The notes under the pieces were generated by a model. The model did no database searches, had not been told where the DNA came from, and worked only from the letters and a program-made list of their open reading frames with translations. A stretch of 54,960 bases of DNA, filler included, from Jimgerdemannia flammicorona (taxonomy: Eukaryota): assembly GCA_003990765.1 (NCBI GenBank). It is 2 parts of 2 records of this genome, joined end to end, with 100 filler letters (N's around TTAATTAATTAA, not from the genome) between each part and the next. Parts side by side here need not be neighbours in the genome. Positions count along the whole stretch, not along the records: positions 1 to 27,431 come from RBNJ01000628.1; 1 more part is not named here. One strand, 5' to 3'. Positions 7,291-54,921 of this stretch are shown one piece after another. Positions within the stretch are counted from its first letter, which is position 1, and each line of letters opens with the position of its first letter. The position numbers were made by a program, and so were the translations under genes.

Positions 7291-7329
7291 AAGAGGTACA
7301 TCTCCTTCAAGTCAACCACCTCAAGAGGA

Positions 7330-9109: not shown

Positions 9110-10170
9110 ATCAGAAGAAGGGTGTCCTGAGGAACCACACCTTAAAGGAAGCTCCTCAGACTATCAAAGCACAAGAAGATCTTATCCGAAAAGAACATCA
9201 AAAAGCCCACCAAGGACAGACAAGCATAGAAGACAGGATTTGAAAACAATATCAACATTGGCCCCACCTCAGAACTCAAGTTCGGGACATCATCCAGAAA
9301 TGTGACATCTGCCAGAAGTACCAAGGAAAGAAGAACTATCAAGCCCCTCTGCAACTGATTCCCCCACCCACTCACCTCTTTCAAAGATGGGGAGTAGATG
9401 TAATTGGATCTCTGCCAGTTACACCAAGAAGAAACAAATACATCCTTGTATTTGTAGAACATCTGACCAAGTGGCCCGAGGCTTTCCCAATGGAAATCAC
9501 AGATGCCTTAACCATTGTAAGCCTCCTCCATGGACTCACACTCAGATATGGACCTCCAGAAGAACTCATCTCTGACCGAGGCACAGAATTCATCAACAAC
9601 ATAATCACAAGTTATTCCTGAATTCACAAGATCTACCTCAAAAGGACCACATCATACCACCCCCAGACCAATGGCATGACAGAAAGAATGAACCAGACCA
9701 TCACGAAAGGACTTGCCTGAGTCAACCCTACTAATTGGGACCTCCGCTTACCTGAGATCCTATGGGAAATTCGGAATATCCCTGCCACATCCACCAAACA
9801 AAAGCCATTCGAAATGATGTTTGCCAAGAAAACCAGAACTGCTGACCATGAGAATCTTGGAGACCTCCTCAAGAAGGCAGAACAGTTACGAAATCAAGCC
9901 CAAGGACAGATTATCAAAGCCCAGGAAAGACAAAAGAAGTACTATAACCAAAAACAGAAGGATCAGGAGATCAAGATTGAAGATCAAGTCCTAGTTTGGA
10001 GAAGCATGATTGAGACAAACTTTGCTGCCAAACTGGAACCAAAATGGGAAGGACCTTATCTTGTACACAACATCAGAGGAACCAGCATCTATTTATGAAG
10101 CATAGATGGACGAACCCTGAGAACACCAGTACACATCAATTACCTCAAGATATACTTCTTCTCACACCAT
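9110..10170 (+). pseudogene. Integrase (family 1), in a different frame from RT-RH
   Basis: HHCC motif EHQKAHQG...CDICQK, core WGVDVIG, ISDRGTEF, YHPQTNGMTER, and GPY motif KLEPKWEGPY. No chromodomain. Several CGA>TGA stops. Confidence 0.95.
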
Positions 10171-10681
10171 GAATCAGAGAATTGACAACTGCCTCCAAAC
10201 TCTTGTTCTCAGTTCCCTCCAAACCCTACCAGTTCCCCTGCCTCAGTTCTGGGAACTCAATGGAACCTATCTTCAGAGAATCTGAGTTCATCAAGAGAAC
10301 CTCACTTTGGCCGAGAGGCTACCCCAGGTCCACCAGCTGCAGGCATATTATGCAATTGGAGAACAATTGCAGAATCTTCCTCTCCCAGACCTAGCCTATG
10401 TCCAAAACACCACTGGCCTGAACAGAAGGAACACTACTGCTACAGACAGACTATACACCATATATAAACAAAATCCTTCCACCTTAATCCAGGCCCAGTT
10501 ATCCCTGAATAACCTCCAAAGAATGACACTACCCACCTACCTCAGCATTATTCACCAAGTGGAGACCCTATTTCCTGAGGAAGAAGAAGAGCCCCTGGAA
10601 TGGAGTGACTGCAGCTCAGATGATGATGATGGAATAGGTATAGATGCAGAAGCTGCTTATGCCTATTGGGATGATGACTGA
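10169..10681 (+). pseudogene. Accessory ORF after integrase (about 170 codons, one internal TGA), unknown function, acidic C-terminus
   Basis: ATG 10169 is in frame with ORF 10307-10681 and the ORF ends just before the PPT. It resembles the LTR-encoded ORF of family 2. Confidence 0.75.
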
Positions 10682-10708
10682 AGAATAGTCTGAGACCGAC
10701 TACCCTTC

Positions 10709-10720
10709 AGTGGGGGCTGA
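10709..10720 (+). promoter_or_regulatory. Short, imperfect polypurine tract
   Basis: AGTGGGGGCTGA immediately precedes the 3' LTR. Confidence 0.55.
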
Positions 10721-12171
10721 TGTAACAGACCAAAACGTACCACCTGAATTATAACTTAGCCAGATGACATGAACAATTAGCATACTTACTCAGCATGATG
10801 TGACTTCCAGTGTATCATAGTTACTCATGCCTGCCATACTTATAATTAGCCAAGACACCAGATCAGGATTGTTTACCTGTGTCCTGAGAACACACTCATG
10901 TCCTACTGATACACTTATGTCCTGCAGACACACTCATGTCCTGCGGACACACCCAAACATTACCAAAGATAGCAAATCTATAGTTAGCCACATAGTAACC
11001 AGATAGCAACCAACTTGTATAAATTACCCCAGAGGCAAGAGTGAATAAAACCTCAGTCCGAATTGAAGTGCAAACCAAAGAAGCCTCTAAAGATTGAGCA
11101 ATTGGTCCCCTTATTCCCACTCCGGTCCACTTTCTGATACAAAGAAGAGTTTGTTACATTTTTGGTTCGCTTGCCAGATAAGCCTGAAGATTTACCACCT
11201 AAGTTCAAGGAGAACTTTGCCGCCTTTTGAAGAACCCACCGCTTAAGGAATAAGCTGCGCTTTTGGTATGCTTGCCAGATAAGCCTGAAGAATCCCAGTT
11301 TCCTGCCAAGTTCAAGGAAGAACTTCGCCGCATTCCCAGAAAGCCGCCTTGCCCAAGCCAGTTTCTGATGCAACTTCGCAGTGATCCGTTTGTGCAAATG
11401 AAGCCAGTCTTTGATGCAACTTTGCCAAGAGACCCTTTCCAAGCCACCATCCCGTTCCCCAGTTAGAGCCCACCGATTTAGGAAGAATCTGCACCATCCA
11501 AGTTAATTTCCAGTTAAGCTGCCATTTTCAGGAAGCCCGCCAAATTAGGAGAATCCATGTCATCCACTGTTTCCAAGATTATCCACTGTATTCCCAGTTG
11601 AAGCTGAAACCACAATATCCGAGTTATTCATCATTTCTAGTGAGCCCAAGTTATCAAGTTATCTGCCACCCAAGTTATTCCCCAAGAACCCCACTGTTTC
11701 AGGAAGAACCCATACCATACATTCCCAGTGAGCCAAATTGAGCTATCCACCAGAAATTGCATACTTTTGAAGATCATCGCACTATACAGGAATCGCCCAC
11801 CACCCAAGAAGGAGAACTGCTAAATTGCCAGACCGTCATGCACAAGATCGTCGTGCTACACAAAGATCATCGCACTAAGACCATCACCTAGAAATCACAT
11901 ACTTTTGGAAAATACCTTGCTATACAAAATTGTACCATTCCCAGTTGACCCAAGAAGGAAAAGACATACAAACCGCCGCTACACCCAGAGAACTGTCCCA
12001 ATAAGGAAATCGCTCACAGATATCCAGCTTTCACTATTATACCGCTAAACACCAAGGACCTCAGGAATCTTAGAACATTTTGTTGCTTTTTGACAAAGTA
12101 ACTGGGGGCTCAAGCCAAACTACATCAACCCCCAACCTTGTAATTTGCCTCCATTGAGCCAGCACATTACA
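10721..12171 (+). repeat. 3' LTR of Gypsy family 1 (1451 bp)
   Basis: Direct repeat of 1659-3129. Differences are mostly transitions plus tandem-unit copy number. Confidence 0.97.
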
Positions 12172-15889: not shown

Positions 15890-17369
15890 AGAGAGGTGGA
15901 CTTGTTGTATAGGATAAGTACATTGCTGATAAGACTGAGAAGGAGACCATAGAAGATGAGAATGAAGTGGTGGTAGGTGAAGTCTAGCTAGTAGTACTTG
16001 ACACCAGAGAGAATAAAGCTATTGGAGGCCAAGGGCATGGCAATTCAGATTCCCAGTATAAGAGGAGAGGATTTGTATCAATTGCAATACTCTAATATTA
16101 ATATAGTTGATATTTACTCTCTTTATCTCCTCCAAAATCTCAGTTATATACTAAAGATAATAGGTAAAGCACCTGAGTTGGTTCTTGTAGAAGATGATTC
16201 AGAAGAAAAAACTGGAATATATATTGTAACGGTGACCCCAGAATGATGACATCAGCACAGGAGACAGCCTTTCTTTACAAGCCACCAGATCAGAGTACAA
16301 GAAGATCATACAGCATATGAGATGAGCAACGATGACCAACTGTGAGTCATTGTGACCACAGCACAAGCATTCTGAGGAATATAAAAGAAGGATCAAGGAA
16401 CTGCAGTAGCAGCAACCATTGAAGTAGAGTAGATAGACTTGTCTTTTACTTTAGATTCCATTTTGGACTAAGGGCTATTCACTCTTGTCACTAGAGTATT
16501 TTATACTGTTGTAGTTGCTATCTGGTTATTTAATGGCTAATTAAAGAAGACTATTTATGGCAGATATTTCTGGTTCAGTATAAGTATTCAGTTCCTATAT
16601 TTAGGTCCTATACAGACTTTCTGATATATCTGGTTAATTATATAAGTTGTTATGACAAAGCAGTTCTAGATGTCCCCAGATATGTTAGACTGTCTTTTAT
16701 ACACCTAGATATATTTGACTATCTTTTTGTTTGCCTATGACTATTAAGTACACCCACTATATAGTTATTTTACAATATTTTTGGTATGATTTCTGCTGCT
16801 TATTACAATATATATTTGGTATATTTAATTAAAACTGGTTGTCAATAGGCTCAGGACACTATTTCTCTCACATATGTTATCATTCTTCATACTTTGTTAT
16901 CCATGTCTTGTACTTCTCTCATAGTTGACCAGCATCTATGTATTCTACTTCTGCTTTACTCTGGGATAAACTCCTGTATTACCAGATTCCTTTTGGAATG
17001 ACTCTCAGCTATTCAGCAATAATTCTTCAATAAGCCATAAATCAGTTTCTGGTTTTATATTTTCACCCTGGGACAAGTATTTGCCAAGCAGGAGATAGAT
17101 ACTATATTAGGTAGATGGGAGAGACAGAGGCAGATCAGTCAAATTGCTATTGAGTAGAAAAGGAAAAGGTATGGACATATAGTAGCAATTTAATGACTCA
17201 TTTTTCACTCAAGCTTACTGATCCAAGTTTATTATTTTATTTGACTATACAAAATAGAATAGATATGTGTGATCCTATAAATATGGCATCATGGTTGACA
17301 AAGTTTATTCCAATTATGTTTATAATGTATATCTTGTACCTTGTATTTGGTGAGTAGGTACAAATATAT
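15890..17369. pseudogene. Decayed coding relic, probably a DNA transposon, split by an LTR and partly inverted (15890-16224 on +, 16419-17369 on -)
   Basis: The ORF starting at 15998 continues in frame for about 45 codons into the reverse complement of sequence left of 17370. Product not recognised. Confidence 0.4.
16225..16418 (+). repeat. 5' 194 bp of a family-2 LTR (truncated)
   Basis: Starts TGTAACGGTGACCCCAG. Near-identical inverted copy of 18729-18922. Confidence 0.92.
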
Positions 17370-17677
17370 ATATTGTCATGTAGTGGTTGCTGAGTCCTTC
17401 AAATATGCCAGATTCTCTTCAAGGTGTATCTCTTAGACTAACTCAAGTTGTATAAGCAAGTTCTTATTGGAGTGCCTTCCCAAGGTCTTATAGTCCTCAA
17501 ACTTCTTATCTTTAACTGTCTTGTTATCTCTTAGATTGCTTGCAAGGAAGTGTGTGTATTGCACTGAGAGGAACTGACTTTATTTCAAAGGAAATAAGAG
17601 AGGTATTTATACAAAATATAATTCAATGGTTGCTAAGATATAAAGCTAAATATAAATTTCAATAACTAAAACTACTG

Positions 17678-17817
17678 AGTTCCAGGGCTGGCATTATTTA
17701 GTATCACATCAAAATGCCAGTGCTGGAATAATTTCGCATCACCTCAGAATACCAGTGCTGGCATTATCCAGTGTTACATGAGAATACCAGTGCTGGTATT
17801 ATCTAGTGTAACAAAGA
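17678..17817. repeat. Four 35-bp tandem units with a palindromic core AATRCCAG-TG-CTGGYATT
   Basis: Cores at about 17678 (degenerate), 17713, 17748 and 17783, immediately downstream of the LTR ORF stop codon. Confidence 0.85.
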
Positions 17818-17822
17818 ACTTT

Positions 17823-18680
17823 TTAGAGCAGAAAGTTCAGGATCATGGGAGCTTCATCATCATCATCATCATCATCACTGAAGGAGATGAGGTCTGCGAA
17901 TTCGTCATGTAGGTCGCGCGTTTCGCGTACTTCGCATGCCTCGTCGCTCGGTTCGCGTGCTTCGGGTATGTCGTGCGGGATGACGTCATCGATGACGTCA
18001 TCACGTTCGGCTGTGGCGGGGAAATTGGGAACACGGTCTGGAGCTCTCCAGTCTATGAGGTTCTCTTCCACAAAATAGGGGACAAATGTGGGGTCTTGGG
18101 GAGATTTAACCCGGATGCTCAGGCCTTGGAATACTGAGATCAATCCTTGCAGGAATTGGTCTGGGTTGTCCTGAAGGATAGGGTGCCAGAAGTCTTCTAC
18201 TTCTACGCTGTTGAGGGTGATGGTGGACTGGGCTTCTGTGGCTACCCTAGCTTCTAGTGCATTGATATGGCAGGATGACAGGTCTCTGAAGTCTGAGACT
18301 CTAACATACTCCAAGTTGGGGATTGACCATGGTGTATGCCTGAAGATCTGATGGATCTTCTTTACCATCCTTGCCTCACATAGGTCTATGGGGGTGGCAT
18401 CTTGTAGCTCTTGAGGGCTGGCCTGTGGGAACTTCCAGCAGAGGAGGTTTCCTATTTCGTACTCCTGCCACATTTGGAGACATTCGGTGGCAAGGGTGAT
18501 CCTTGTTTTCATTTTATGGCGGTAGAGGATAAAGTGATAGGGGTCTGCAGTACCCAGGTTGATGCTAGGAGTCCTTCTTGAGTGGGTCCTCATGGCTCTT
18601 CTGATGTCTTGAAACATCCTTTCCTCGACCAAGATACCTTGATGATTCCTTGATCTTGAGATTTGGTGGGCAGCAGGCAT
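17823..18680 (-). CDS. Intact 285-aa LTR-encoded protein of unknown function with an acidic C-terminus
   Basis: ATG in AAAATG context, open through to ...APMILNFLL*. Start and stop positions are conserved in the decayed copies in the other family-2 LTRs. Confidence 0.85.
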   Translation of the reverse strand: MPAAHQISRSRNHQGILVEERMFQDIRRAMRTHSRRTPSINLGTADPYHFILYRHKMKTRITLATECLQMWQEYEIGNLLCWKFPQASPQELQDATPIDLCEARMVKKIHQIFRHTPWSIPNLEYVRVSDFRDLSSCHINALEARVATEAQSTITLNSVEVEDFWHPILQDNPDQFLQGLISVFQGLSIRVKSPQDPTFVPYFVEENLIDWRAPDRVPNFPATAERDDVIDDVIPHDIPEAREPSDEACEVRETRDLHDEFADLISFSDDDDDDDEAPMILNFLL

Positions 18681-18922
18681 TTTGTTTGTGGTAAGTCTTT
18701 GAGCTATTTTGGGATTGGTGGTTCTTGTTGGTTACTGCTACTGCAGTTCCTTGATCCTTCTTTTATATTCTTCAGGATGCTTGTGCTGTGGTCACAATGA
18801 CTCACAGTTGGTCATCATTGCTCATCTCGTATGCCGTATGATCTTCTTGTACTCTGATCTGGTGGCTTGTAAAGAAAGGCTGTCTCCTGTGCTGATGTCA
18901 TCATTCTGGGGTCACCATTACA

Positions 18923-20500
18923 ATAGTTATAGAATATATATCTTTCCTTTTTATAGATGAAGTATAGACTCTGATTATAATTCTATTTTTATTTATTATT
19001 ACTATATATCTTAGTTTTTTTATATTTCTTTTGGCTATTTTGAACCTTGTTTCCAGATGAGATAACTCTTCTGTCTTACTAATCTTTTTTGGATTTTCAG
19101 TTTTATAGAACCTAAGTAGCTAGGATTTATAGATTATATATTATACTTGAGTAAAACACTATAAGAAGTATCTATATCTCTAAGGAAGACTTTGTTTCTT
19201 AATTTTCTAGATAAGTCAATCTGATAAAACTATAAAGAGATAATTAGTTTTAATACTATTAATAGCTAGATTGTTTTTTTAGTAGATAGGTCTCATAGTT
19301 TTGAAGTAGACATCTATCCTTATAGTAAAGATTTTGAAATTCTCCTCACTAATCTTATGAAACTTCATATGGGCCAGCTTATTCTAGATCTCTTAAATAT
19401 AGGCTATATTTTGGAATTTTTTCAGCAAAAGGTCTTAAGTCCTGGAGTTATATTATATTTATTCTATTCTAGTTTATTATTAGTTGGGTTCTATATAATA
19501 ACTTAAGAGTAATTTTCTTAGATTACTAAATATTCTTCTAGAATATACTAGAACCTAATTATTATTTCTAAGAAAAAGTTTATAACTATTTTTACTTCAG
19601 CTGTAAAAGTAGTAAATAGTTGTAGAATAGAATTCTCTATTATTAATAAGTATTCAAGAGGATACTTGGTCATTATTCTACTGATTGGTATAATATCCTA
19701 TATTAACTATATTAATGAAGCTTTCAAAATTACCATTCTTTCTACTAAAGGTTGAAATTTACAAATTCTTAACAAGTTTATTCTATTTAGCTATTTAGTT
19801 TATGATTTTTATCAGAGCTAATAATTGCTAGATTAATACTTAGATATAACTAATAATTATTATAATTGTTACTGAGAATACTATGAAAGTTAATTCTTCT
19901 GATGAGATTTCTACTTGATATAGTTGAGGTACTATATAACTGGGGGTTGCTTAGTTCTTAAACAAGAGATCAAATAGATTAGTGAGAGTAGATAGTCTAA
20001 ATCTCTAAACTGTAATCAATTTTGTTTAAATATCTATTGTCATTAGCTTATATACTTGATCACTAAGAATAGTTGGTTGGAATATTCTTAGGCCTGTATT
20101 TTCTTATTGACTATCATCAGATTGATATCCTTCTTGGTCTTCTTTATAGTTACTATCTTAGTGAATTTGAGTATTGTGATACCAACTTAATTCTTTAAAA
20201 AGAATTTCTAGTTCTGATTGGATAAATAGTCTTACTTCTTATTCTAAAGTCTGTAAGAGTGGGTCCCACTATTCTTGCTCTAGTCTGATCATAAAGTTTA
20301 TATGGTAGATTTCTACTTAGTAATAGAGTGAGATTCAGGTTAGAGTAGTGTGATATTGATCTGAATCAATCTACTCCTCAGCTGCTATTCATACTTTAGA
20401 GTCAGCAATATAGTCTAAGAATTTCTGATTAATTATAGTAATTGATTCTGAGGTTCTTGTATAGCTAGTGTGATTTTGAACAAGTACATTGAACCTTTGG
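18923..20500 (-). pseudogene. Very decayed Gypsy-like integrase region
   Basis: Only faint integrase-like residues, and a purine tract near 18940-18953 on the minus strand. Very AT-rich. Confidence 0.3.
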
Positions 20501-21497: not shown

Positions 21498-22727
21498 TTA
21501 CAAATACTTCTTCACATACTCCTCACTTACACTCCACAACCTCTCCGCTGCATTTGGATCTTTCGCCTGCTCGGTTTTCGGGCTGGACACGCTTACATCC
21601 TCCAGATATGCTCCGCCCTTGCCCTTGAGCTCGGGTGCCACAAGCGCCCACACTTGAGTCGCGGTTCCCTGTGGCAAGGTCTTTAATTCCGGCCCATAAT
21701 TGCCCTTGGCATCTGTCCACCCTCTCTGGATAGCTTCCTCGATGGGGATGTGGCGCTGAAGCGGAGTCGGAATTCCACCGGGATGGATGCTGAAGGCTTC
21801 GATGCCCTTGGAAGCATAGAGCTTGTTGAGTTCGTAGGCGAAGAGAATGTTTGCGGTTTTGGATTGACCATACGCTTTCCATTTGTCGTAAGGGCGCGTG
21901 GTGAAATTCGGATCGGAGAAGTCGACACCGTCTGGAGTTGATAAAGAAAACGGAAGTAGGGAAACAGGTACGGGATGTGAGATGGAATGATACCTTGCTC
22001 GTCAACCTTCAACGTCCGGAAGTAAAGCGGTGAGCAAACTCCCAAGAAACCAAGGTCGCTCACCTAAACGGTGACCGGAGGAACTGACGACAACCACGCG
22101 GGCTGGAGCATTAGCTACGAGGTTGTCAATCAAGAGTCGAGTGAGGAGGTAGTGTGCGACGTGGTTCGTGCCAAACTGAGTTTCGAAACCATCAACGGTA
22201 TTGCCAAAGGGGGGGGCCATAATTCCTGAAGAAGACCGATTAATAAGTTGGACGCTCAGCAACGAAAGGCCGTGTCAAACATAAACATTAAAGGAATTTT
22301 CTGCTTACCGGCATTGAGGATTAGCCCATTCAGCAGCACGCCGGAAGCCTTGACCTCGTCAGCAAAGGCCTTGACGCTGGCGAGGCTAGACAAGTCCAAT
22401 TTGTAGTAGGTAATTTCGGCCGTGGGAGTCTCCGCCTTGATATTTGCAACTACCTTTTCGCCGGCAGCGAGGTCGCGGGCGCTGAAAATAATTTTGGCAC
22501 CGTGCTTCGCCAAGACACGTACACTTTCCTCGCCTGTGAAGGTGCAAATTTCATGCGTCAATTATCTTTTCGAAGAAAATGGAAAGAAATCTGTGTATAT
22601 ATTACACACCAAGGCCGGAGGTGCCGCCCGTGATAAGAAAGGTTTTTCTCTGGACATCGATATCATCGCGGGAGAGGACCTCCCCAGCAGTGGTGCGGTA
22701 GCCGGGGGGTTCGGTGTTAGCGGACAT
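21498..22727 (-). CDS. Short-chain dehydrogenase/reductase (retinol dehydrogenase/WWOX-like), 312 aa, 4 exons: 22727-22610, 22533-22309, 22225-22064, 21931-21498
   Basis: TGGTSGLG NAD(P)-binding motif, LNAGIM, GFETQFGTNH, VVVSS, catalytic YGQSK, IHPGGI and AERLW. Three GT-AG introns; exon lengths sum to 939 nt in frame. Confidence 0.95.
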
Positions 22728-27431: not shown

Positions 27432-27531
27432 NNNNNNNNNNNNNNNNNNNNNNNNNNNNNNNNNNNNNNNNNNNNTTAATTAATTAANNNNNNNNNNNNN
27501 NNNNNNNNNNNNNNNNNNNNNNNNNNNNNNN
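27432..27531. other. Artificial scaffold spacer (44 N + TTAATTAATTAA + 44 N)
   Basis: Exactly 100 bp with a six-frame stop linker in the centre. Confidence 0.97.
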
Positions 27532-35333: not shown

Positions 35334-36907
35334 TATAATGGTGATCTCAGAATAATGACATCAGTACAGAAGACAGCCTTTCCTTATACCATTAGATCAG
35401 AATATAAGAAGATTATACAATATGACTCATCCAGACTATAAGATGAGTGATGATGATCAACCATGAGTCATTATGATTACAAGACAGATATCTTGAGGAA
35501 TATAAAAGAAGAATCAAGAAACTACAGTAATAGCAATTCAAATAAAGTATACAAGAATAGTTCTAAAGACTTACCACAAACAAAATACCTGCCACTCACC
35601 AAACCTCAAGATCCAGGAACCACTAAGGCCCCTCAGTCCAGAATAGGATATTCTAAGACATCAGAAGAGCCATAGAGATCTGTACAAAAAGGACTCCTAG
35701 TATTAATCTGGGTACTGGTGACCTTTATTATTATATTCTCTATTGCTATGAAATGGAAACAAGGATCACCATTGCTACTGAATGTCTTTAGATATAGCAG
35801 GAGTATGAAATAAGAAACCTCCTCTGCCAGGAGTTTCCTCAGACCAGTCCCCAAGAGATTCAAGATGCCATCTCTATAGATATATACAAAATAAGAACAA
35901 CAAAGAGGATTTATCAGGTTTTTTGGCATGTACTATGGTTGATCTCTAACTTGGAGTACACTAGGATCTCAGACTTCAAAAAACTATCAGCTTATCACAT
36001 CAATGTACTGGAGGCCATAGTGGCCACAGAGGCTCAGTCTACTATTACCCTCAATAATAATGAAGTAGAAGACTTCTGGTATCCCATTCTCCAGAACAAT
36101 CCAGATCAATTTATACAGAGATTGATCTCAGCATTCCAAGGCCCCAGTATCTAGGTTAGATCTCCCCAAGACCCCACATTTGTTCCTTATTTTGTAAAAG
36201 AGAATGTCATAGATTAGAGAGCCCCCACCACTGCTAAACATGATGACATCATTAGTGATAACATCATCCATATGATATATATAAAATACATGACCTATGT
36301 GATGAAATGGACAAAATATTTGCAGATCTCATCTCTTTCAAAGACATCCTATCTCTGACCTCTGGCCTTAATAGTGATGAAGATGAAGCCTCTATAGTTC
36401 TGAAATTCCTGCTTTAAGTTCTTGATAACATCAGATCCTACCAGCATCCTTTTCCTATGTAACTGTCATTTTTCTGATATTCTGATCTTAAATAACTCAA
36501 AATTCTTCTGGTATCCTTTTTCTATATCACTGAAATTCTACTGATATATATCCTAACTTATGTAACCATTTGTTCAGACAACTATAGTTTTCTGTATTCC
36601 AGTATTTTATTTGGTTATTGAAATTTATATTTAGCTTTATAACTTAGCAATCATTGAATTATATTTTGTATAAATACTCCTTTTATTTTCTTTTGAATAA
36701 AGTTAGTCCCAGTTCACTTATCCTCAATTTCATATAAGCAATCTAAAAGATAACAAGACAGTTTAAAGATAAGAAGTTTGAGGACTATGAGACCTTGAGA
36801 AGGTACTCTAATAAGAACTTACTTATAACAAACTTGAGGTTAGTCTAAGAGATATATCTTGGAGAGAATCTAATATATTTAAAGGACTCAGCGACCACTA
36901 TATGACA
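35334..36907 (+). repeat. 5' LTR of family 2, with a disrupted copy of the LTR ORF at 35585-36417
   Basis: Direct repeat of 43712-45282. Translates to LEYTRISDFKKLSAYHINVLEAIVATEAQSTITLN, homologous to 17823-18680. Confidence 0.95.
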
Positions 36908-37028
36908 ACTTGGTATCCATTGGCTGGTGATTCAAGATGAATCCCTTACTTTCAAGCTAAAAAATGAATAACTACCACAACAACTACTCTGACTACAAGA
37001 GTCACTCCTGTAAGAATTCAAGATAAGA

Positions 37029-39400
37029 TGGAAATATATTCCCCTATATTCTATGGATATACTACTGAAGAGTCAATCCTGATCTTCATTGAAGACTTTG
37101 AACAATTCACCACTATATAAGCCCTTAGTGTAGATATACAATTGGTCCTTCTACCTGTCAGCCTCAGAGGACCTATCAGAGATAAGTTCAATATAGCTAC
37201 TATTGCTAATACTAATGAAGCCAAACTTGCTAACATGAAGACCTTCCTCAGAACTATATACTATATCAAAGAGATTAAGCAAGCTCTCAAGAATCAACTC
37301 AATAATATCTGCCAGAAACTCAGTAAAGATTCCAACTTATTCTATACCTAAATCTACCACTAGATTGTCTTGGCTAACTATAATAATGCCCTCAAAGAAC
37401 AAATAGCAGATTCAACCTTCCTCAAAGGAGTTCACTCTGAAATTGTCCTAGCAATCTGATCTACCCCAGCTACTCTAACCCTTGACCAGAAAGTGATCTT
37501 TGTACAGAGATATTGAACTGCCAGACACCCTGCTGAATACTCAATGGAGAAAATAACTAGCATCAAGATAGAGCCATCAAAGCTGATCAGTATCATATGT
37601 ATCTGCCACAGTTGTAAACAGATAACTATCTCCACCTACCCCCAAGATAGCTAAAGCTGACCCAGTGGAGGAACTCACTAAGTAGTTTACCAAGATGACT
37701 ACATATCTTAGTGATATTGTTAGAGAAGTCTGAAGCACCAATAGGAGACCAGTACAGAGATTTGCAGTTACTATAGAAGAATACAATATCACATACTTTA
37801 GATGTGGAGAAGAAGACTACTATGTAAAGAGTTATATCTGAAATGAGATACAAAGCCCAACCAAGTAATGTTACCAGAACCAGAGAACAAACCAATGCAG
37901 TAGTCATCAAGGAGATTGGTGATACTGATGATGAAGAATACTACAAGAAGTCCGAATTCTATCCTGTTACTAGTGCTCCAAACGAGTCAATCTGGATGAG
38001 ATTCGGATGGATTCGAATCCCATCTGGATCAACTCGGATCAACCATTGTTTTGATTTCCAAATTGGACAATTAAATGTTTACATCAATAACTCGATGAAT
38101 AATTATCCAAATTTAATGATCTTGGCGTCATTTGAAAGCCCTTAATAAGGCCTTTCTAATGATATCAAGAACATTAAAATCGGATTATGCGTTGCCGAGG
38201 TATTAAGGAAAACGTTCTATTTGACGAAATTTCCAAAATCGGCAAATCGAAGAATTTCCAAAATCGGCGATTCAGACGGTTTCCTTCATAACTCAGCAAT
38301 GCATGATCGGATTTCAATGTTCTTGATATCATTAGATAGGCCTTATTAAGGGCTTTCAAATGACACCAAGATCATCAAATTTGGATGATTATTCATTGAG
38401 TTATTGATGTAAACATTTAATTATCTAATTTGGAAATCAAAACAATGGTTGATTCGAATCCCATCCGAGTTGATTCTAATGGGATTCAATCCGAATCAAT
38501 CCGAATCCAATCCGGATTAAATTGACTTGTTAGGAGCACTACCTGTTACTAAAGGTGCCAGAACCCAGTCTAAGCCCTATGATAAGAAGAGCAACAGCAA
38601 GCTAGTTGGAAGACCAAAGAAGACCCCAGCTATTACTATTCAAAGTAAGACCCAATCTGAGGAGATTGATCAAGACATGGAGTTAGATAAAGCTGCCCAC
38701 CAAATCATTAAAGACACTACTCCAGTATTAGGAGAAAGTGAAAGCAAGAAGGAACAGAAGCTGTATAAGACTAAAATCTACTAGTATGATATCTATAAAG
38801 ACCTTAAGGAACAGAAGATCAATGCTACTTTTGAATAACTAGCCAAAGTCTCTACCTTCAGATAGCAGTTGAGAGTAGAACTTGCAACTACTGCCAAAAA
38901 TTAAGAGTATAAGATTGTAGAAGCTCACAATGTATAAGAAGAACCTGAAGACTTAGATAAGGAATCTGAAGACCAGTACAAGATATCAGTCTATATCTTA
39001 TATCAGATCAAAGATTATATCTTTGATGCCATCATTGATATTAGTGCTGGAGGATCTCTTATAAGCAAGAAGACAATTGACCACCTAGGCTGAGATATTG
39101 AAGAGTTTACCAAGATAGTCTATATTATAGTAGATATATAGCATACAAGCTACCCCATTAGATAAGATCCAAGAAGTACCCATCAAGATAGGAGAAGCTA
39201 CTATCCCAGTAGATGTAATTATTATAAGTATTACTAACTATGATATCCTCATTAGCAATCAATGGCTTTATAAGATCAAGGCTGTCATTGACCTTAATGC
39301 TTAGAAGATGCAGATCAACTATAGAGGAAGAAAGTTATAAGTCTCTATCAATATCTACAAAAGAGTATTACTAGATATAGAGAAAGGAGATGAAGAAGAC
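37029..39400 (+). pseudogene. gag and protease (family 2)
   Basis: IPLYFYGYTTEESILIFIEDFEQF, a decayed zinc knuckle near 37760-37810 and protease AIIDISAGGS near 39030. Confidence 0.8.
37971..38541. mobile_element. hAT-derived fold-back MITE, type B
   Basis: TAGTGCTCC...GGAGCACTA termini, 8-bp TSD CCTGTTAC, long internal inverted arms. Confidence 0.96.
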
Positions 39401-39714
39401 ACAGAAGTCTTCATACACTTAGTATATAAGAACAAGAGTAAGACACCTAAGCTCACAGATGAGCAGTGGTATAACAAGATCATTAATAGCTATATCCCTC
39501 AAGAAAGATGCCCCCATGGTATCAGGATGTACTGCTCTGAACATCTGAATAACTGCTGGTCCTATATCAGTGAAGTCAGGAAAATCCACTAATAAAAGTA
39601 TGAGCAAGAAGCTGCTATAGCAAAAAGGGAAGTTGAAGAAGATGACTAGCCCCCAGAGCTTCAAGCTAACAATAATGACAAGGAGGAACAAGAACCAGAC
39701 ATCATCCTCAAGGT

Positions 39715-40110
39715 CAAGAAGTTTCACCCCAAAGTCAAGATTCTAGAATATAAGACTGAAGGAGTCATAGGAATGGACCTTGCTAGTATTTAAGATACTA
39801 CTCTTGAACCACAGACAATTACTCTACTTGGTACTGGAATTGGAGTCAAGTTGCTAGAGAACTATGCCAGAATTATCAAGACCAGGAGAAGTCTGGCTAA
39901 AAGTGAAATCTTAGTTAAAGGAGGAGTAATTGATCCTGATTATATAGGTGAGATCTTCCTTATAGTTAGGAATCACAACCCCACTACCCCATTCAAAGTC
40001 AAGAAGCATAACAGAATTGACCAGATGCTGATCCACAAAGTCAAGATCACTGAAGCCATTGAACTCATCAAGATCAAGAGAGGATAACAAAGCTTTGAAT
40101 CTACTGGAAG
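39715..40110 (+). pseudogene. dUTPase domain (family 2)
   Basis: IGMDL, TRRSLA, GGVIDPDYIG, RIDQ and RG*QSFESTG. In frame with RT. Confidence 0.9.
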
Positions 40111-40228
40111 AGGAGCCTATGCTACTACTAAGATTATAGAACTTGAGTATAAGAAAGATAAGGACCAGAATAAGTACACATATACCATTGGAGAAAACTT
40201 TTCTCTAGAAGAACAACTTCTCAAGATC

Positions 40229-42160
40229 TTGTACCAGAATGAAGGAGTACTTACCACAGACTTCAGGGACATCTATAATCAAGAACCCAAGTACTATCAT
40301 GAAGTTGACACCAATGATTCCAAGTCCATCTACCAGAAAGCCAGACCTATACCCAGAGAATGGCTACAGGCAGAACTCAAGGAAATGGAAGAAGTTAGAA
40401 TAATCAAGCAAGCTATCAGCCCCTGGGCTTCACCCATTGTTAGTGCTCCAAATGAGTCAATCTGGATGGGATTCGGATGGGATTTGAATCAACGATTGTT
40501 TTTGATTTCCAAATTAGACAATTAAATGTTTACATCAATAACTTGATAAATAATCATCTCAATTTGATGATCTTGATGTCATTTGAAAGCTCTTAATAAG
40601 GCCTTTCTAATGATATCAAGAACATTAAAATCGGATTACACGTTGCCAAGATATTAAGGAAACCATTCCATTTGACGAAATTTCCAAAATTGACAAATCA
40701 AATAATTTCCAAAATCGGTGATTCAGACAATTTCCTTCATAACTCAGCAACGCATGATCGGATTTCAATGTTTTTGGTATCATTAGATAGGTCTTATTAA
40801 GGACTCTCAAATGACACCAAGATTATCAAATTTGGAGGATTATTCATTGAGTTATTGATGTAAACATTTAATTGTCTAATTTGGAAATCAAAACAATCGT
40901 AGATTCGAATCCATCTGGATGGGATTCAATCAGAATCAATCCGAATCCCATCTGGATTAAATTGACTCATTTGGAGCACTACCCATTGTTCTCACCCTAA
41001 AGAAAGGAAGCAAGCCTGGAGAGTTTGCCCCAAGACTCTGTATTGATTACAGAAAGCTCAATACAATTACTAAGAAGGATAGATAGCCCTTGCCAAATAT
41101 TCAAGAAATCCTTACCACTCTTGGAAGTGAAGTCAAATACTACACCACCTTGGATCTGTTCTCAAGCTTCTATCAGATTGGTCTCACTCAAGATGCCAGT
41201 GAGAAATCAGCCTTCTTCACACCTAATGCCACCTATGTCTACTTGTGAATACCATTTAGAATGTATAATGCCCCAGTAAGTTTTCAGTGAATGATGAATA
41301 GAGTCTTCAGTAATGAGATTGGAAAATGGCTCTTTGTCTATATTGATAATGTGATCATCTTTAGCAACACTGTATGAGAATATATTAATTATATATAGCT
41401 AGCTCTAAAGAAGCTCAAGAAGTATGGCCTCTATATCAAGCTCAAGAAATGTAAGTTTGTAGCTCAGAAAATTACCTACCTAGGACACCTCATCAATCAG
41501 ACTGGAATTTACATGGACTCTATAAAGATCAAGGCTGTTGCAGCCTACCCAAGACCCAGAATAACTACAGAAGTCTATATCTTCCTTAGACTGACCTCCT
41601 ACTATAGAAGATTTATCAAAGGATACTCCAATATTGTAGTATCTATCTATGAGCTACTGAAGAAGGAGACTAAATTTGAATAGACTAAAGAATATCAAGA
41701 AACCTTCAATAAACTCAAGACCAGGTTAACCTAAGCATCTATCCTCAGAAGACCAGATTGGAACCTAGAGTTCATCCTGCAGATAGATACAAGTACTATA
41801 GGACTTAGAGCAGTTCTAGCTCAGAAGAAAGATGGATATGAATATGTCATCTCCTATATAAGCTAAGATACCTGTGGAGCAGAATAGAACTATAAGTCAT
41901 ACAAGCTTGAATACTTAGCAGTAGTTTGGGCAGTAGATAAGTTCCATTACTATTTAGCTGAGAAACACTTCACTATTCAATCAGATCACTCTGCTCTTGC
42001 CTGGCTATTTCACACTCTGAACCCCAAAGGAATATATGTCAGATAGATCTACAGGCTATAAGAGTATGACTATACTGTCAAGTACCACTCAGGAAAAACT
42101 AATGCCAATGCTGATATACTCTCAAGAATACCCCAAAACACCCCCATCAAGACTATTTAA
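40229..42160 (+). pseudogene. Reverse transcriptase and RNase H (family 2)
   Basis: SPWASPIV, RLCIDYRKLN, VYIDN (from YIDD), GLRAVLAQ, SDHSAL, NANADILSR, then TAA at 42158-42160. Confidence 0.93.
40441..40981. mobile_element. hAT-derived fold-back MITE, type B
   Basis: Same TIRs, 8-bp TSD CCCATTGT, homologous to 37971-38541. Confidence 0.96.
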
Positions 42161-42161
42161 T

Positions 42162-43345
42162 ATGAACAAGGAGCTGTACTATGGATTAATCAGCTATCTT
42201 AGGCAGTAGAAGATATCCAACCACCTTGAACTCTGGACTATCACCATCATCAACTAGACTTAGAAATAATTTGAACTAGACAACACTATACTCAGAAAAG
42301 GAGGAAAGCTTACAATACTCAAATATAAGAAGTATCAAGTAATGAAGAAAGTACATGAACAAGGATATCTAGGAGGAACCAATATATATAATAAAGTAAA
42401 AAGAACTATGTGGTGAAGAAGACCTGTGCTAATTTGTCAAAAAGTGTGACAAGTACTAAAAACAGAAACAAGATCAGTAAGACCAAATATCTGGGTCATC
42501 AAGAATTGAGCCTACTCCCTTCCACTATATCACAATAGATATTATTGGACTGCTACCAGTGATACTATCAGGAAACTACTACATTATAGTTATTGTAGAC
42601 CATTTTACCAAATAAATAGAAGTAGAAGTATTATAAGAAGCCAATGCTTTCTCTATAGTCGACTTCCTGTACCAAGAAATTATCTGCCACTACAAGACAC
42701 CAAGACAAATCACCATAGACCACAGCACAGAATTTGTCAATGGATTTTATAAGATAATATATTAGAAATACAAGATTAAGTATATCAAGACTACTGCATA
42801 CCACTCTCAAGGAAATGAACAGACAGAAAGAACCAACAAGATCCTCAAGAACATCCTAATGAAGATCTCAGACATATATGTCAATTGGAATAACTATCTC
42901 CCAACTGCTCTCTCTGTCCTACAAGATATACAGTTATAGAGTATATACTTTACTCCAAAAGAACTGCTCTTTAGAGAAGAAGTTTCTAATGGAACCTTAG
43001 CCACAAATCTAGACCTAACATGGAGACAGATAGACTCAGAAATCCAGAGACTATACCAAATCAGGAAGAAGGCTGAAGATTACATTATCAAGTTATAAGT
43101 GCTGATAAGGAAGAATACAGAGAAGAATTACAAGACCCTAAAACTCATCCAAATTAGAGAAAAAGTCCTACTGTATTGAAATATGGTAGAAGCCTCATGA
43201 TTATGAAAACTGGAGCCCAAATAGAAAGGACCCTTTTATGTGTAAGATATTAAGAGAACTACCTTCTAACTTAGAAAACTCACAGAGACTATACTGCCTA
43301 CTATAATATATAGGAATAGACTCAAGAAGTACCATGAACCTATAT
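42162..43345 (+). pseudogene. Integrase as a separate ORF with its own ATG (family 2)
   Basis: TAA-T-ATG junction, then MNKELYYGLISYL, ITIDIIG, VDHFTK, DHSTEFVN, YHSQGNEQTER and KLEPK*KGPF. Confidence 0.9.
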
Positions 43346-43362
43346 AAGAGAAGCAAAACACA

Positions 43363-43670
43363 ATGATCACCCATGAGGTTCTAGTCCATGAATCATAATA
43401 GTATATCCTATGACTAGCAGACAATTTGTCTAGACCATTCTCTAAGAGATACAGTATCAGCAACTACTCATCTGTGAGACTTTTAAAGTCAGAGGAGTTT
43501 GAACTATCAACTGATTGATCAAGATCAGAATCAGGCTCTTGCTCTATATAAAGAGAGCAACTCTTCACCATTATGTCAAAATATATAGAGAAGATATCAG
43601 CCCATAAATACCACTTTTCAACCCCTTACCAGAGGTTATGAGATCAGCAAATTTTTCAGGACTGAACCAA
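43363..43670 (+). pseudogene. Decayed small ORF between integrase and PPT (family 2)
   Basis: From ATG 43408 it reads ...QQLLICETFKVRGV*TIN*LIKIRIRLLLYIKRATLHHYVKIYREDISP. Same position as the family-1 accessory ORF. Confidence 0.4.
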
Positions 43671-43711
43671 TGAATAAGAACATTCAAGAAGATCCTTATT
43701 TAGGAGGAAGA

Positions 43712-45282
43712 TGTAACTGTGACCTCAGAATGATAATATCAGCACAGGAGATAGCCTTTCCTTATACCATCAGATCAGAGTATAAGAAGATTATATGACA
43801 TGACTTATTTGGGCTACAAAATGAGTGATGATAACCAACTGTGAGTTATTGTGACCACAAGACAGATATCTTGAGGAATATAAAAGAAGGATTAAGAAAC
43901 TATAGTAGCAGCAATCCAAACAAAGCATACAAGAATAGTTCTAAAGACTTATTATAAACAAAATGCCTGCCACTTGCTAAACCTCAAGGTCCAGAAACTA
44001 CCAAGGCCCCTCAGTCCAGAATAGGATGTTCTAAGATATCAGAAGAGCCATAGAGATCTGTACAAGAAGAACTCCTAGTGTCAATCTGGGCACTGGTGAC
44101 CCCTATCATTATATCCTCTATTACTATGAAATGGAAACAAGAATCACCATTACTACTGAATGCCTTTGGATATAGCAGGAGTATGAAATAGAAAACCTCC
44201 TCTGCTGAGAGTTCTCTCAGGCCAGTCTCCAGGAGATTCAAGATACCATCTCCATAGATATATATAAAATAAGGATAGCAAAGAAGATTCATCAGATCTT
44301 CCAGCATATATCATGATCAATTTCCAACTTGAAGTATACTAGAATCTTAGACTTCAAGGAACTATCAGCTTATTGTACCAATGCACTGGAAGTCATAGTA
44401 GCCACAGAGGCTCAGTTCACTATTACTCTCAATAGCAATAAAGTAGAAGACTTCTGGTATCCCATTCTCCAGGACAACCCAGATCAATTTATATAGAGAT
44501 TGATCTTAGTATTTCAAGGCCCCAGTATCTAAGTTATTCCTCTCCAAGACCTTATATTTGTTCCTTATTTTGTAGAAGAGAATATCATAGATTTGAGAGC
44601 CCCTACTGCTGCTGAACATGATGATATCATTGGAAATGATATAATTCTGCATGATATATATGAAATGCATGACCTATACAATGAGACAGATGAAACATTT
44701 GTGGACCTCATCTCCTTTGAAGACATCCTATCTCTAATCTCTGGCCTTGATAGTAATGAAGATAAAGCCCCCATAATCCTGAACTTTCTACTTTAAGTTC
44801 TTGGTAATATCAGATTCTACCAGCATTCTTTTTCTGTATAACTATCATTCTTCTGATATTCTGATCTTGTATAACTTGAAATTCTTCTGATATTCTTTTC
44901 CTATACTACTGAAATTCTACTGGTATCCTAAACTTATATAACCATTTGTTCAGACAACTGTAGTTTTCTGTATTCTAGTATTTTATTTGGTATTGAAATT
45001 TATATTTAGCTTTATAACTTAGTAACTATTGAATTATATTTTTTTATAAATACCCCTCTTATTTCTTTAGAATAAAGTCAGTTTCAGTTTACTTACTCTC
45101 AATTCCATACAAGTAATCTAAAAGATAATAAGATAGTTTAAAGATAAGAAGTTTGAGAACTATAAGATGTTGAGAAGGTACTTCAATAAGAACTTACTTA
45201 TAACAAACTTGAGGTTAGTCTAAGAGATATACCTTGGAGAGAATCCGATATATTTGAAGGACTCAGTGACCACTATATGATA
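43712..45282 (+). repeat. 3' LTR of family 2, with a disrupted LTR ORF at 43963-44796
   Basis: Starts TGTAAC. ATG at 43963 and the ...APIILNFLL* end are retained. Confidence 0.95.
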
Positions 45283-47875
45283 ATAATTATAAAAAGGTTA
45301 TATATTCTTTTCTGTATCTGGTCCTAAGTCTTCAACTACCTCTGTAGAATATTTCTAGAGAACATTATCAACCTGATTGATGAATACTAGAGTGATATCA
45401 TCTTTCAAGTAGTCTAGTATACAGCTCTTTAGTTTGAAGAGTATCTAAAATTCAGTATTAATCTTAATAAGTAGATTCTGATAAAGAAGAGAAGAATGTA
45501 ATAGTTTATTATCCCTTTTATAAATAAGATTGTCTTTTAAAATCATTTAGCAGACAAATTAAAGTTTGAAAAAAATGATTTTTTGAAAAATTATTGGTAA
45601 ATTTTTTTTAAAAGCTATTATGATTTTAAAAGTTATAAAATTATAGGTCCAAAACAGTCAAAGGGATATATCAATAAAATTACTAAAAATTCTAATAAAA
45701 TTTTCAATAAATAGTTATAAAATATACTAACAGATTACTAAAATTTCTAATAGAAATTCTAATAGAAATTCTAATGAATTTTTTAATAAACAGTTATAAA
45801 TAATATATAGTATAACTATATATAGATTTACTCAATATATCATATTTAGTTATAGTTTTAAATCTATATAAATATCCTCTATATTAAGTATATTGTAATC
45901 TTAGCTTTACTTTCTCTGACTATAAGATTAAAACAGTATTCTTATCAAAGAACTCTCAGATCTAACTTATTAATAATTCTAAGCTTGATCAATTTAGAAT
46001 ATAAGTATAGTACCTCTATCATCAGTATAAGAATCCAAAAGTAATACTTAGACTATACTACTATAATAGACAATTAGAGCTTAGTGTTTTCTTATAAGAA
46101 TCTAGAACTTAGAACTAATAGCTATCTTGATTATTCACAATATATTAATTCTATTAGTATATAGTTTTATTATATAGATCTAGTTATTATTAATCAAGAA
46201 CTAGAGTATAAAGTTATTTATATTCTAGATAATAAGAACTACTATTTTGAATAAGCTATCAAGTTTACTTAATACTGTCTTATAAAATAGAAAGAATATT
46301 CTAAGTATGATATTATTTGAAAAAAAGAAGAAAATCTTATATCAAATACAGAAAAAGTAATAATCTAATATAGATATACTATATATATATATGTATAATA
46401 GAAATTCTAATGAAATTTCTAAAGAATAGTTATATATACCTAATAGATAAGTATAAATATCTCTTAAATATTATATAAATAACTTACTTATAATATAAAT
46501 AGTTAATAATAATCCTAAGAACAAATCAAGAACAAGATCACTATAACTATATATTTTTATAGCTATTAAACACTAATGAATCTCTACTGAGCTACTATTA
46601 GTTATATAATACATATATTGTCATATAGTAGTTGCTGAGTCCTTCAAATATATCAGATTTTCTTCAAGATGTATCTCTTGGACTAACTCAAGTTTTGTTA
46701 TAAGCAAGTTCTTATTAGAGTGCCTTTCAAAGGTCTTATAGTCCTCAAACTTCTTATCTTTAAACTATCTTATTATCTCTTAGATTGCTTGTAAGAAATT
46801 GAGGGTAAGTGAACTTGACTGACTTTATTTTGAAGGAAATAAGAGAGGTATTTATACAAAATATAATTCAATAATTGCTAAGATATAAAGCTAAATATAA
46901 ATTCCAATAATCAAATAAAATACTGGAATACAGAAAACTATAGTTGTCAGTACAGATTCCAGTATTAGTACAGATAGTTGTATAGGTTCAGGATGCTGGT
47001 ATAATTTTGGTGATATAAGAAAAGGGTGCTGGAATAATTCTAAGTTACATAAGGTCAGAATGCCAGTGGAAGAGTTAACTGTTATATAGAAAAAGGATGC
47101 TAGCAGAATTCTGTATCACTAAGAACTCAGAGCAGAAAGTTCAGAACTATGGGGACTTTATTCTTATCACTATCCTCAAAGAAGATGAGGTCTACAAATG
47201 TTTCATCTATTTCATATATATATTGTATGGGATGACATCATCACTGATGATGTCATCATGTTCAGTGGTATCAGGGGCTCTTTAGTCTATGAGGTTCTCT
47301 TCCACAAAATAAGAAACAAATATAGGGTCTTGAGGAGGTCTGATCTGAATACTTGGGTCTTAGAATACTGAGATCAATCCTTGCAGAAATTGATCTAGAT
47401 TGTTCTGGAGGATGGAATACCAGAACTCTTCTACCTCATCACTATTGAGAGTAATAGTGGACTAGACTTCTGTAGCTATCATGGCTTCTAGTATATTGAT
47501 ACAGTAGGCTGACAGATCTCTGAAGTCTGAGACTCTGGTATACTTCAAGTTGGAGATTGACTATAGTTAGTGCTCCAAATGAATAGAGTTGATCCAGATG
47601 AGATTTGATTCAGATTCGTCATGTGATGGATTCGAATCAACTCGGATTGGTCTCATGATCTAATCTGGATTGATCTGGATTGATCCAGATTGAAATCTTT
47701 GGTGACATTACTCTTTCTTTTATTCATTTTGCTCTTGTTTTTTTTTTCCTGCTGCACTTTAGTGACATCACCCTTTCCTTTGTTCTCTCTCTTTTCTTTG
47801 TTCTTTTTCTTTATTCTTTCCTACCATATTATGAGCAAACAAAACAGTAGCTCTTAATTTGTACATTAGTCCAGT

Positions 47876-53950: not shown

Positions 53951-54163
53951 TTAACTCATTTGGAGCACTAACTATGGTATATGCCTAAAGATCTGATGAA
54001 TCTTCTTGGCTGTCCTTATTTCATGTAGATCCATGAGAGTGACATCTTATAACTCTTGAGGGCTGGTCTGAGGGAATTTCCAGCAGAGGAGGTTTCCTAT
54101 TTTATATTCTTACCACATCTGAAGGCATTCAGTAGCAATGGTAATTCTTATTTCCATCTTACA

Positions 54164-54921
54164 GACCAGCTTGCGGTCCATGTCAAGTAGCATGATCAGC
54201 CTCCAGTTCTTCTAATCTTCCCATCTCCCCTTATTCTTATAGAGTAAGGAGACCAACCTCAGGCACTGGCCCCCAATCCAAGTTCCAGACTGAAGAACCT
54301 CCCTGCACATATCTGCCATTTCCTCCAACACCATACCCACCCCAGCCATCTTCTTCCAGAAGTCCCAGGGGAGTCCATCCTCCTCTGGCACTATCCTCTT
54401 GCTGATTGTAGCCAGGACCCTGCCAATTTCCTCTCGGCTTACAGGGTCTCCCAAATTCCCCAGGCCCATCATGGGGTCTGGATGCCAATCTCCCAGCTGC
54501 CTTTCAATGTCCAAGGCATCCTCTCTGTCCTCCTCTTCACTCCATAGACCCTCTCAATGGGTTCATAGCAATTCAAGAATCACCGGCATCCCCACCACTA
54601 GCTCCCCATCCACATCCAGGACTCCTTCCCACTGCTGCTTCATTCGTCATACCTGAAGCATCCATGAAAGAAACCTAGTAGGCCTCTCCCCCTCCTCAAG
54701 CCCTTGCCACCATAACTGTATCACCATCCCCTGCAGCCTCAGCTCCTCCTCCCAATGTAGCACTTCTTTAAGCTCCACAACTTCCTTCTGGATCCTCACA
54801 ATATGCCAGTCAGTCACCTCCCAATCTTCCAGCATACCCATCCATCGCTCCATGAGTGTCACCAAATACTGTGATGCCCATAATACCCTTCACTATCTTT
54901 GGACACCCCTTCCTTTTTCTG

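Follow-up and report, generated by a model that had tools for sequence, protein, structure and literature searches.

A candidate accessory gene lies wholly inside the long terminal repeat of a dUTPase-bearing Ty3/Gypsy retrotransposon in Jimgerdemannia flammicorona

Annotation pipelines mask the long terminal repeats (LTRs) of retrotransposons, which are regarded as control DNA without coding capacity, so that a selected protein gene inside an LTR would routinely be missed. Sag of mouse mammary tumour virus (MMTV) is a type II membrane glycoprotein of a vertebrate retrovirus, and in foamy viruses the gene at the 3′ end for the small accessory protein Tas (Bel1), whose C-terminal part is acidic, has a dedicated internal promoter; bel2/bet and the nef gene of human immunodeficiency virus (HIV) overlap partly with U3, the unique 3′ region of the LTR. 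Here, we analyse 54,960 nucleotides of Jimgerdemannia flammicorona DNA (assembly GCA_003990765.1; two parts joined by filler, hereafter the window), in which an LTR of a Ty3/Gypsy retrotransposon, termed family 2, carries an intact open reading frame (ORF) for a protein of 285 amino acids.

Literature searches, which left out Repbase, Dfam and subscription journals, returned no protein gene inside a Ty3/Gypsy LTR. What they returned on ORFs in LTRs was MMTV sag, the LTR microRNAs of foamy viruses, and polyprotein or unrelated uses, with LTR-borne genes only in retroviruses. This agrees with the original prediction made from this DNA, which held that such genes are known in retroviruses and are not a standard Ty3/Gypsy feature; nor did the searches turn up an already described Gypsy LTR protein that matches the present one. 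Additional ORFs (aORFs) outside the LTR are better documented. They include the env-like ORFs of the plant elements Athila and Bagy2, the antisense ORFs of Grande, RIRE2 and Retand, the ORF of Boty of Botrytis, and ORF3 of bdelloid rotifers; as far as the excerpts of the two sources go, they are family-wide, of unknown function, conserved about like other element genes and without cellular homologues, and their place is the internal region, in most cases after pol and ahead of the 3′ LTR (PMC7264820; PMC5408684). The bdelloid rotifer LTRs measure only 159-551 bp, according to the excerpted part of PMC5408684. Among Ty3/Gypsy elements of fungi, the excerpt of PMC2864245 lists as dUTPase-bearing PosPlaTy3-5 of Postia placenta, elements of Phanerochaete and Tmt1 of Tuber.

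The LTR that carries the intact ORF stands alone at 17374..18922 on the minus strand. It is 1549 bp long with TG..CA ends, and its minus-strand reading runs TGTAATGG...CATGACA. Self-BLAST aligned its positions 1-1549 with the direct repeats of a full family-2 element (Table 1), with further matches at the 3′ part of a third LTR, at 53971-54161 and at a truncated 194-nt piece. Contigs from public sequencing runs, placed on 17000-19300, covered only 17374-18922 and ended at both borders in 4/4 runs. Beyond the borders, the contig overhangs continued into an undecayed primer-binding site (PBS) on one side and a polypurine tract (PPT) on the other (9 and 6 contigs in run X1; 1 and 3 in run X2). 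Because the contigs stop there and continue into PBS and PPT, 17374 and 18922 are the exact limits of the LTR, as the original prediction had placed them. The LTR is abundant in soil metagenomes and also occurs in two organisms (20 rows from 12 studies, best share of words 0.34). In the window, neither PBS nor PPT adjoins the lone copy, and its flanks (CTAT versus ATAT) form no clean target duplication.

More than half of this LTR is a single sense-strand ORF, as had been claimed: the frame lies wholly inside the repeat and takes up 858 of 1549 bp (55%). Across 2000 shuffles of the LTR, the longest ATG-initiated ORF averaged 74 aa and never exceeded 182 aa, compared with 285 aa in the real sequence. 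An LTR of the second Gypsy family in the window (family 1; 1471 bp, GC 0.44, the same GC content) contains at most 108 open codons, and neither tblastn with eight members of the protein family nor the open-codon check found a homologue of the ORF there. Over the whole window, tblastn with these eight members revealed copies only in family-2 LTRs.

The original prediction had also listed disrupted but colinear copies at 35585-36417, 43963-44796 and about 47125-54163, and tblastn found them there, the last as 47130-47593 plus 53942-54220. The ORF is thus present in 4/4 window LTRs long enough to hold it and intact in one. The copy in the 5′ LTR of the full element contains 9 in-frame stops and one 2-nt indel; the 3′ LTR copy contains 8 in-frame stops and no frameshift, remaining in a single frame throughout. 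The ATG of the latter (43963) lies 252 nt 3′ of the PPT/LTR junction at 43711/43712 and thus outside the internal region. The further claim that every element has two copies and a lone LTR retains the gene stands as well, in that both LTRs of the full element carry copies and the lone copy is intact.

Two local features of these copies were recorded. The third copy is interrupted by a 6403-bp DNA transposon (47568-53970), whose terminal inverted repeats of at least 15 nt and 8-bp target duplication resemble those of the hAT type; Pfam returned nothing for any of its open stretches of at least 85 codons, and about 300 bp of it are common to 33032-33331. Inside the intact ORF, at 17979-18002, a doubled 12-nt unit, GATGACGTCATC, codes for DDVIDDVI. 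The doublet holds two perfect TGACGTCA palindromes, the classical basic leucine zipper (bZIP)/cAMP response element (CRE) site, which may be a coincidence of codons or a binding site in U3.

Family 2 belongs to the Ty3/Gypsy retrotransposons and encodes a dUTPase between protease and reverse transcriptase (RT), an assignment made because of its PBS, its PPT, its ordered pol domains, its colinearity with family 1 and its zinc knuckle. In the full element, the PBS TGGTATCCATTGG occupies 36911-36923, just after the 5′ LTR, and the PPT AGGAGGAAGA occupies 43702-43711, immediately before the 3′ LTR; the 4 nt ATAA flank the element on both sides within AT-rich surroundings. Pfam matches in the internal region follow the order RVP_2 (7.1e-6), dUTPase (5.7e-13; 39794-40084), the last part of RVT_1 (3.6e-4, which misses the Pfam cut-off) and then RT_RNaseH (2.5e-13). 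In tblastx comparison, the family-2 pol is colinear with that of a better-kept family-1 element at 1659-12171, whose ORFs match dUTPase, RVT_1, RNase H, rve and Integrase_H2C2, and the same colinearity extends beyond RNase H, into the part of family 1 with the rve and Integrase_H2C2 matches. With direct repeats, PBS, PPT and pol order in place, the repeat predicted to be a Gypsy LTR is a true one.

A decayed gag zinc knuckle lies at 37794, and since this knuckle sits in the internal region, the LTR ORF is not the gag gene of the element. A gag origin of the ORF was ruled out on that ground and because the eight family members find copies in LTRs only. As separate observations on the two elements, the family-1 element at 1659-12171 is a second dUTPase-bearing Ty3/Gypsy retrotransposon, with LTRs of 1471 and 1451 bp that are 91% alike and lack a long ORF, and an intact CCHC knuckle of gag at 4558. 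A piece of its RT gave a mixture of taxa in the Atlas (Streptophyta, Oomycota and Basidiomycota); the soil metagenomes and the published dUTPase-bearing Gypsy elements of fungi might point to a truffle-like or other soil fungus as host. The full family-2 element contains two copies, 86% alike, of a sequence of about 570 bp that has inverted arms within it (37971-38543 and 40441-40983), which may be a small foldback element resembling miniature inverted-repeat transposable elements (MITEs), or an internal duplication.

Protein searches revealed that the ORF belongs to a family. Of 632 candidates from a word-indexed search, 6 proved to be relatives; HMMER, run exhaustively on 1.84 billion representatives, gave 6 matches, and a profile search gave 13. 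Five of the HMMER matches are real; the sixth, P0012, was discounted as a low-complexity repeat protein. The relatives are short proteins from JGI or ENA assemblies. Their identity to the window protein in the alignment ranges from 91% down to 25-26%, and intact relatives are present down to about 25-36%. Blocks of conservation extend over the entire core (residues 60-215), and DLIxF and LNF motifs recur in the tail. At the DNA level, a single metagenome locus, L001, was related, and none was found in the viral contigs or prokaryote genomes searched.

L001 encodes a relative of 323 codons with 52% amino acid identity to the window protein. Over 284 aligned codons, the two differ by pN 0.30 and pS 0.71, corresponding to a ratio of nonsynonymous to synonymous divergence (dN/dS) of about 0.18, which is a rough value because dS is saturated (2.1) and a single pair was compared, but its direction is clear. 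Taken separately, the core gives 0.11 and the tail 0.27, and differences at the first, second and third codon positions number 112/74/143. Comparison of the lone LTR with the older window subfamily, performed pairwise between copies and not through a consensus, identified indels of 21, 6 and 3 nt, all multiples of three, plus one 2-nt indel of decay. Among the best-supported 40 of 294 variant places in the public-run contigs, 15 of the 27 inside the ORF fall at third codon positions (p 0.014). Frame conservation, indel lengths and dN/dS thus all agree with the coding frame that had been predicted. At the level of sequence, these comparisons show that the ORF is kept by purifying selection across diverged subfamilies, and by this evidence it is a real gene and not a chance frame.

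The motifs around the ORF suggest where in the LTR it sits. The first TATA motif, GAATATAAAAG, is invariant in 5/5 aligned copies, L001 included; its distance to the ATG shortens to 65 nt in L001 from the value in the window (Table 1), and a leader of about 20 nt up to the ATG is conserved between the two. Past the stop codon lies a conserved island consisting of TGTATAAATACC and then, 26-27 nt on, AATAAA. Despite the 48% residue difference between the window protein and that of L001, three non-coding islands are therefore held in common: the first TATA, the leader, and the second TATA with AATAAA. A TATA box with a poly(A) signal close behind is the usual junction between U3 and the terminal repeat R of an LTR. 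Because the ORF lies 3′ of the PPT and 5′ of the main TATA and the poly(A) signal, we infer a position in U3, like that of sag in MMTV. The interval from the stop codon to the second TATA contains 35-bp tandem repeats, which look like enhancer repeats.

The predicted product is a protein of 33 kDa with an isoelectric point of 4.8. Its net charge is +8 over residues 1-60, -11 over residues 61-215 and -19 over residues 216-285, and in 6/6 full-length relatives the net charge of the C-terminal 90 residues lies between -14 and -21. The highest 19-residue hydropathy, 0.75, indicates no membrane segment. AlphaFold, run on a 14-sequence alignment, gave a helical core, predicted with intermediate confidence, and a tail that is disordered, with a predicted local distance difference test score (pLDDT) below 35. 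Since sequence and fold searches came back empty and no membrane segment is present, the product, as judged from its sequence and model, resembles neither Sag nor env or gag products. Activation domains typically look like this tail, acidic and rich in bulky hydrophobic residues, and long acidic runs are equally typical of histone-binding proteins; a transactivator-like or chromatin-directed role may be inferred. The original prediction had proposed a trans-acting regulator, either a transactivator or an anti-silencing factor, and what speaks for it is the composition of the acidic tail. When 14 aligned members were searched against Pfam at E up to 1, ATG5_HBR (2 members, best E 0.088) and GAE_BBS1 (1 member, E 0.23) appeared and were rejected as weak. 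The best Atlas score, 0.89, fell below its 0.9 line and pointed to unnamed clusters.

The explanation we consider best, with a probability of about 0.5, is that family 2 carries a selected, self-contained accessory gene in the U3 of its dUTPase-bearing Ty3/Gypsy LTR, whose product would be a regulator. Reverse transcription places a copy of U3 at either end, so each new insertion would arrive with two copies of the gene, and recombination between the LTRs would leave a lone LTR with the gene still present. The odds appear even that the gene is a self-contained unit, in which the first TATA would start an mRNA of about 1.2 kb ending at the LTR's own AATAAA, allowing each LTR, paired or lone, to make this message. 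Genomic RNA would start at the second TATA, shortly beyond the poly(A) signal, and this signal would not be in its 5′ end.

More tentatively, the 33-kDa product could be a soluble regulator that raises the element's own transcription in trans. This possibility is suggested by the basic head, the helical core, the acidic tail with its DLIxF and LNF motifs, and the lack of a membrane segment. Such a product would act like foamy-virus Tas from its own promoter, with the 35-bp palindromic repeats before the second TATA as its candidate target. The most extended version, which we regard as unlikely in its entirety, makes the LTR a portable cassette of promoter, ORF and terminator, in which lone LTRs would keep producing a regulator that activates the main promoter in trans through the repeats, closing a feedback loop on copy number.

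Several points weigh against this explanation, beside the saturated dS and the single pair behind dN/dS. The stretch from the stop codon to the second TATA, including the 35-bp repeats, is not conserved in L001, and the limits of U3, R and U5 (the unique 5′ region), both promoters and the poly(A) site are read from motifs. None of the public runs listed as containing the stretch is recorded as RNA; two that may be RNA, X10 and X20, contain relatives of the ORF, although contigs reveal neither transcript ends nor levels. The LTR location is demonstrated for the window copies; L001 has the same layout and stops short of an LTR end. Selection on a transposon gene indicates that the element benefits from it, but not in what way. 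Distant relatives have only a weakly basic head, the net charge of their first 60 residues being -1 to +5. The AlphaFold model is poor (mean pLDDT 54.8), and neither Pfam, for the window protein, nor a PDB sequence profile returned a match at E up to 10. Foldseek yielded no significant fold match to a known protein (nothing at E <=0.001; best 0.47 in PDB and 0.083 in BFVD), and VIA-align over 48,161 chains reached a best Z of only 4.7. Accordingly, Pfam, the PDB profile, Foldseek and VIA-align recognised no DNA-binding or activation domain.

The decay of the old copies bears on a different role for the product. The intact ORF contains 29 CpG and each old copy none; the two LTRs of the full element are 85% alike, and 149 of the 197 private changes between them are C>T or G>A, with C>T commoner than G>A on the sense strand. 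The C>T rates are 0.30 at CpA, 0.24 at CpC and 0.27 at CpG, and changes at CpT are rare. With rates about equal on CpA, CpC and CpG, classical repeat-induced point mutation (RIP) was not supported as the cause, and the pattern, judged from these copies, is neither classical RIP nor pure CpG decay. Because old copies are heavily C>T mutated and have lost their CpG, the host clearly attacks family-2 elements. This would suit a product that acts on the host and not on transcription: an anti-silencing factor, an acidic histone or chromatin binder that aids integration or opens the LTR, or a dose-dependent control of copy number exerted from lone LTRs too. Acidic runs fit histone-binding proteins as well as activators, and retention of the gene in lone LTRs is also compatible with such a role. 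The domain searches favour neither direction, and we consider a host-directed product a real but minority prospect.

The preferred explanation, with its own promoter in each LTR, also has to be weighed against other routes of expression. Spliced subgenomic messages serve for MMTV sag and for env, both in retroviruses and in some Gypsy elements. By analogy, the ORF might be translated solely from the 3′-terminal U3 of the element RNA, through a spliced message from the main LTR promoter, in which case the first TATA would be irrelevant and lone LTRs silent for the gene. Its position 3′ of pol and PPT is the usual place of env-like and extra ORFs, according to the excerpted part of PMC7264820. 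However, the first TATA and the 20-nt leader are conserved across the 48% residue difference from L001 while neighbouring non-coding sequence is not, and no splice sites were noticed, none having been searched for. This route is rather unlikely.

It is improbable, in turn, that genomic RNA starts at the first TATA, which would place the ORF as first cistron in a very long R with gag-pol downstream. A TATA motif does precede the ORF in all five copies compared, but the second TATA with AATAAA close behind it is equally conserved and forms the usual U3/R junction. From what is established on the use of retroviral poly(A) sites, a signal at a distance of over 1 kb from the cap would terminate most transcripts within the 5′ LTR.

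Retrotransposons do capture host sequences, as the excerpt of PMC7264820 describes, and the ORF could in principle be a host gene transduced by the LTR, or a host family residing in LTR-like repeats with no role for the element. The relatives, however, are all short unnamed metagenome proteins with no named cellular protein among them, and longer or fused forms numbered 0 among 7998 longer candidates (weak evidence, according to the search tool). Moreover, L001 shares the TATA-ORF-TATA-AATAAA layout and every window copy lies within a family-2 LTR, which leaves host capture very improbable. That the ORF is a non-coding chance frame in a young copy, as the intactness of only 1 of 4 ORF-bearing window copies might suggest, is refuted by the 182-aa shuffle maximum, the intact distant relatives, the low dN/dS and the in-frame indels, and is scarcely credible.

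Table 1. Coordinates of the LTR-borne ORF, its surrounding motifs and its carrier element in the window
Feature	Position	Strand	Remarks
Intact ORF (P0001)	17823..18680	-	285 aa, ATG to stop; LTR positions 243-1100
First TATA motif GAATATAAAAG	18760..18770	-	87 nt before ATG; candidate promoter of the ORF
Second TATA motif TATAAATA	17604..17611	-	Conserved with its surroundings in L001; candidate genomic-RNA promoter, end of U3
AATAAA	17579..17584	-	27 nt after second TATA (26 nt in L001); putative poly(A) signal shared by ORF mRNA and genomic RNA
Tandem repeats	17682..17813	.	3.8 copies of a 35-bp unit, each with palindrome CCAGCACTGG
Truncated family-2 LTR	16225..16418	+	First 194 nt of the LTR, 96% identical to lone LTR; stops before the ORF
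Full element	35334-45282	+	Two LTRs, PBS, PPT, gag knuckle, protease-dUTPase-RT-RNase H-integrase
5′ LTR	35334..36907	+	Self-BLAST; holds ORF copy 35585-36417
Internal region	36908..43711	+	PBS, gag knuckle, protease, dUTPase, RT, RNase H, integrase-colinear part, PPT
3′ LTR	43712..45282	+	Self-BLAST; holds ORF copy 43963-44796
Third family-2 LTR, 3′ part	46619..47567	-	Carries C-terminal half of the ORF
Third family-2 LTR, continuation	53971..54220	-	N-terminal part of the ORF, past the DNA-transposon insertion

Elsewhere in the window, the only host-like gene is represented by short-chain dehydrogenase fragments at 21501-22561 on the minus strand (adh_short, 1.4e-9 and 2.5e-5), which fall in two frames and may belong to an intron-bearing gene or a pseudogene. 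In the region 27600-33300, GC content is about 0.45-0.49, CpG is almost absent and the GC skew is very strongly negative, reaching -0.55; Pfam found nothing there, and the region is bordered by N runs at 27432-27475 and 27488-27531.

That all relatives of the protein are unnamed metagenome entries is in line with genes in LTRs being missed. Should the portable-cassette version be true, the locus would provide the first description of a protein gene in the U3 of a Ty3/Gypsy retrotransposon, and its product would found an unknown protein family. Lone LTRs would then be expressed genes and not inert scars, the number of LTRs would set the dose of the protein, each insertion would double that dose, and the genome would fill with autonomous copies of the regulator. 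Models of copy-number control, silencing and domestication would change accordingly. The locus would also extend the layout of complex retroviruses, as known from MMTV sag, to Ty3/Gypsy elements without env, and would add a protein family without recognisable fold.

Comparison with dUTPase-bearing Gypsy elements of fungi places the carrier: both Gypsy families of the window share with them a dUTPase domain that follows protease and precedes RT. PMC2864245 names an 'additional ORF with unknown function' in a figure legend, and its main text, supplementary tables aside, places no ORF in an LTR as far as the excerpt extends. The likeness to aORFs concerns conservation, since the LTR ORF occurs in all four adequate window LTRs and has a dN/dS of about 0.18 against a diverged subfamily. 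The difference is one of position: the ORF lies 3′ of the PPT, inside the LTR, and the gene is therefore duplicated and survives in lone LTRs, unlike aORFs.

Foamy-virus Tas offers a proposed analogy, resting on a 3′-end accessory gene, an acidic C-terminal part and a candidate promoter of its own. The present protein differs from Tas/bet and HIV nef in showing no sequence or fold similarity to them in the Pfam, PDB-profile and Foldseek searches, and here the whole gene lies in the LTR. Compared with activators of the Tas/VP16 kind, the acidic-hydrophobic tail (-19; DLIxF, LNF) is similar in composition only, and both DNA binding and activation are putative. MMTV sag differs in its product and carrier: the LTR protein described here has no hydrophobic segment and no Pfam match at E up to 10, and its carrier is a Ty3/Gypsy element without env. 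In architecture, however, sag is the close counterpart, as a complete sense-strand gene of about 300 codons inside the LTR and in both LTRs of the provirus (in part from abstracts such as that of PMC2118998). On the sequence evidence, we therefore rate the layout as that of a retroviral U3 gene, with a carrier and a protein family that appear to be new.

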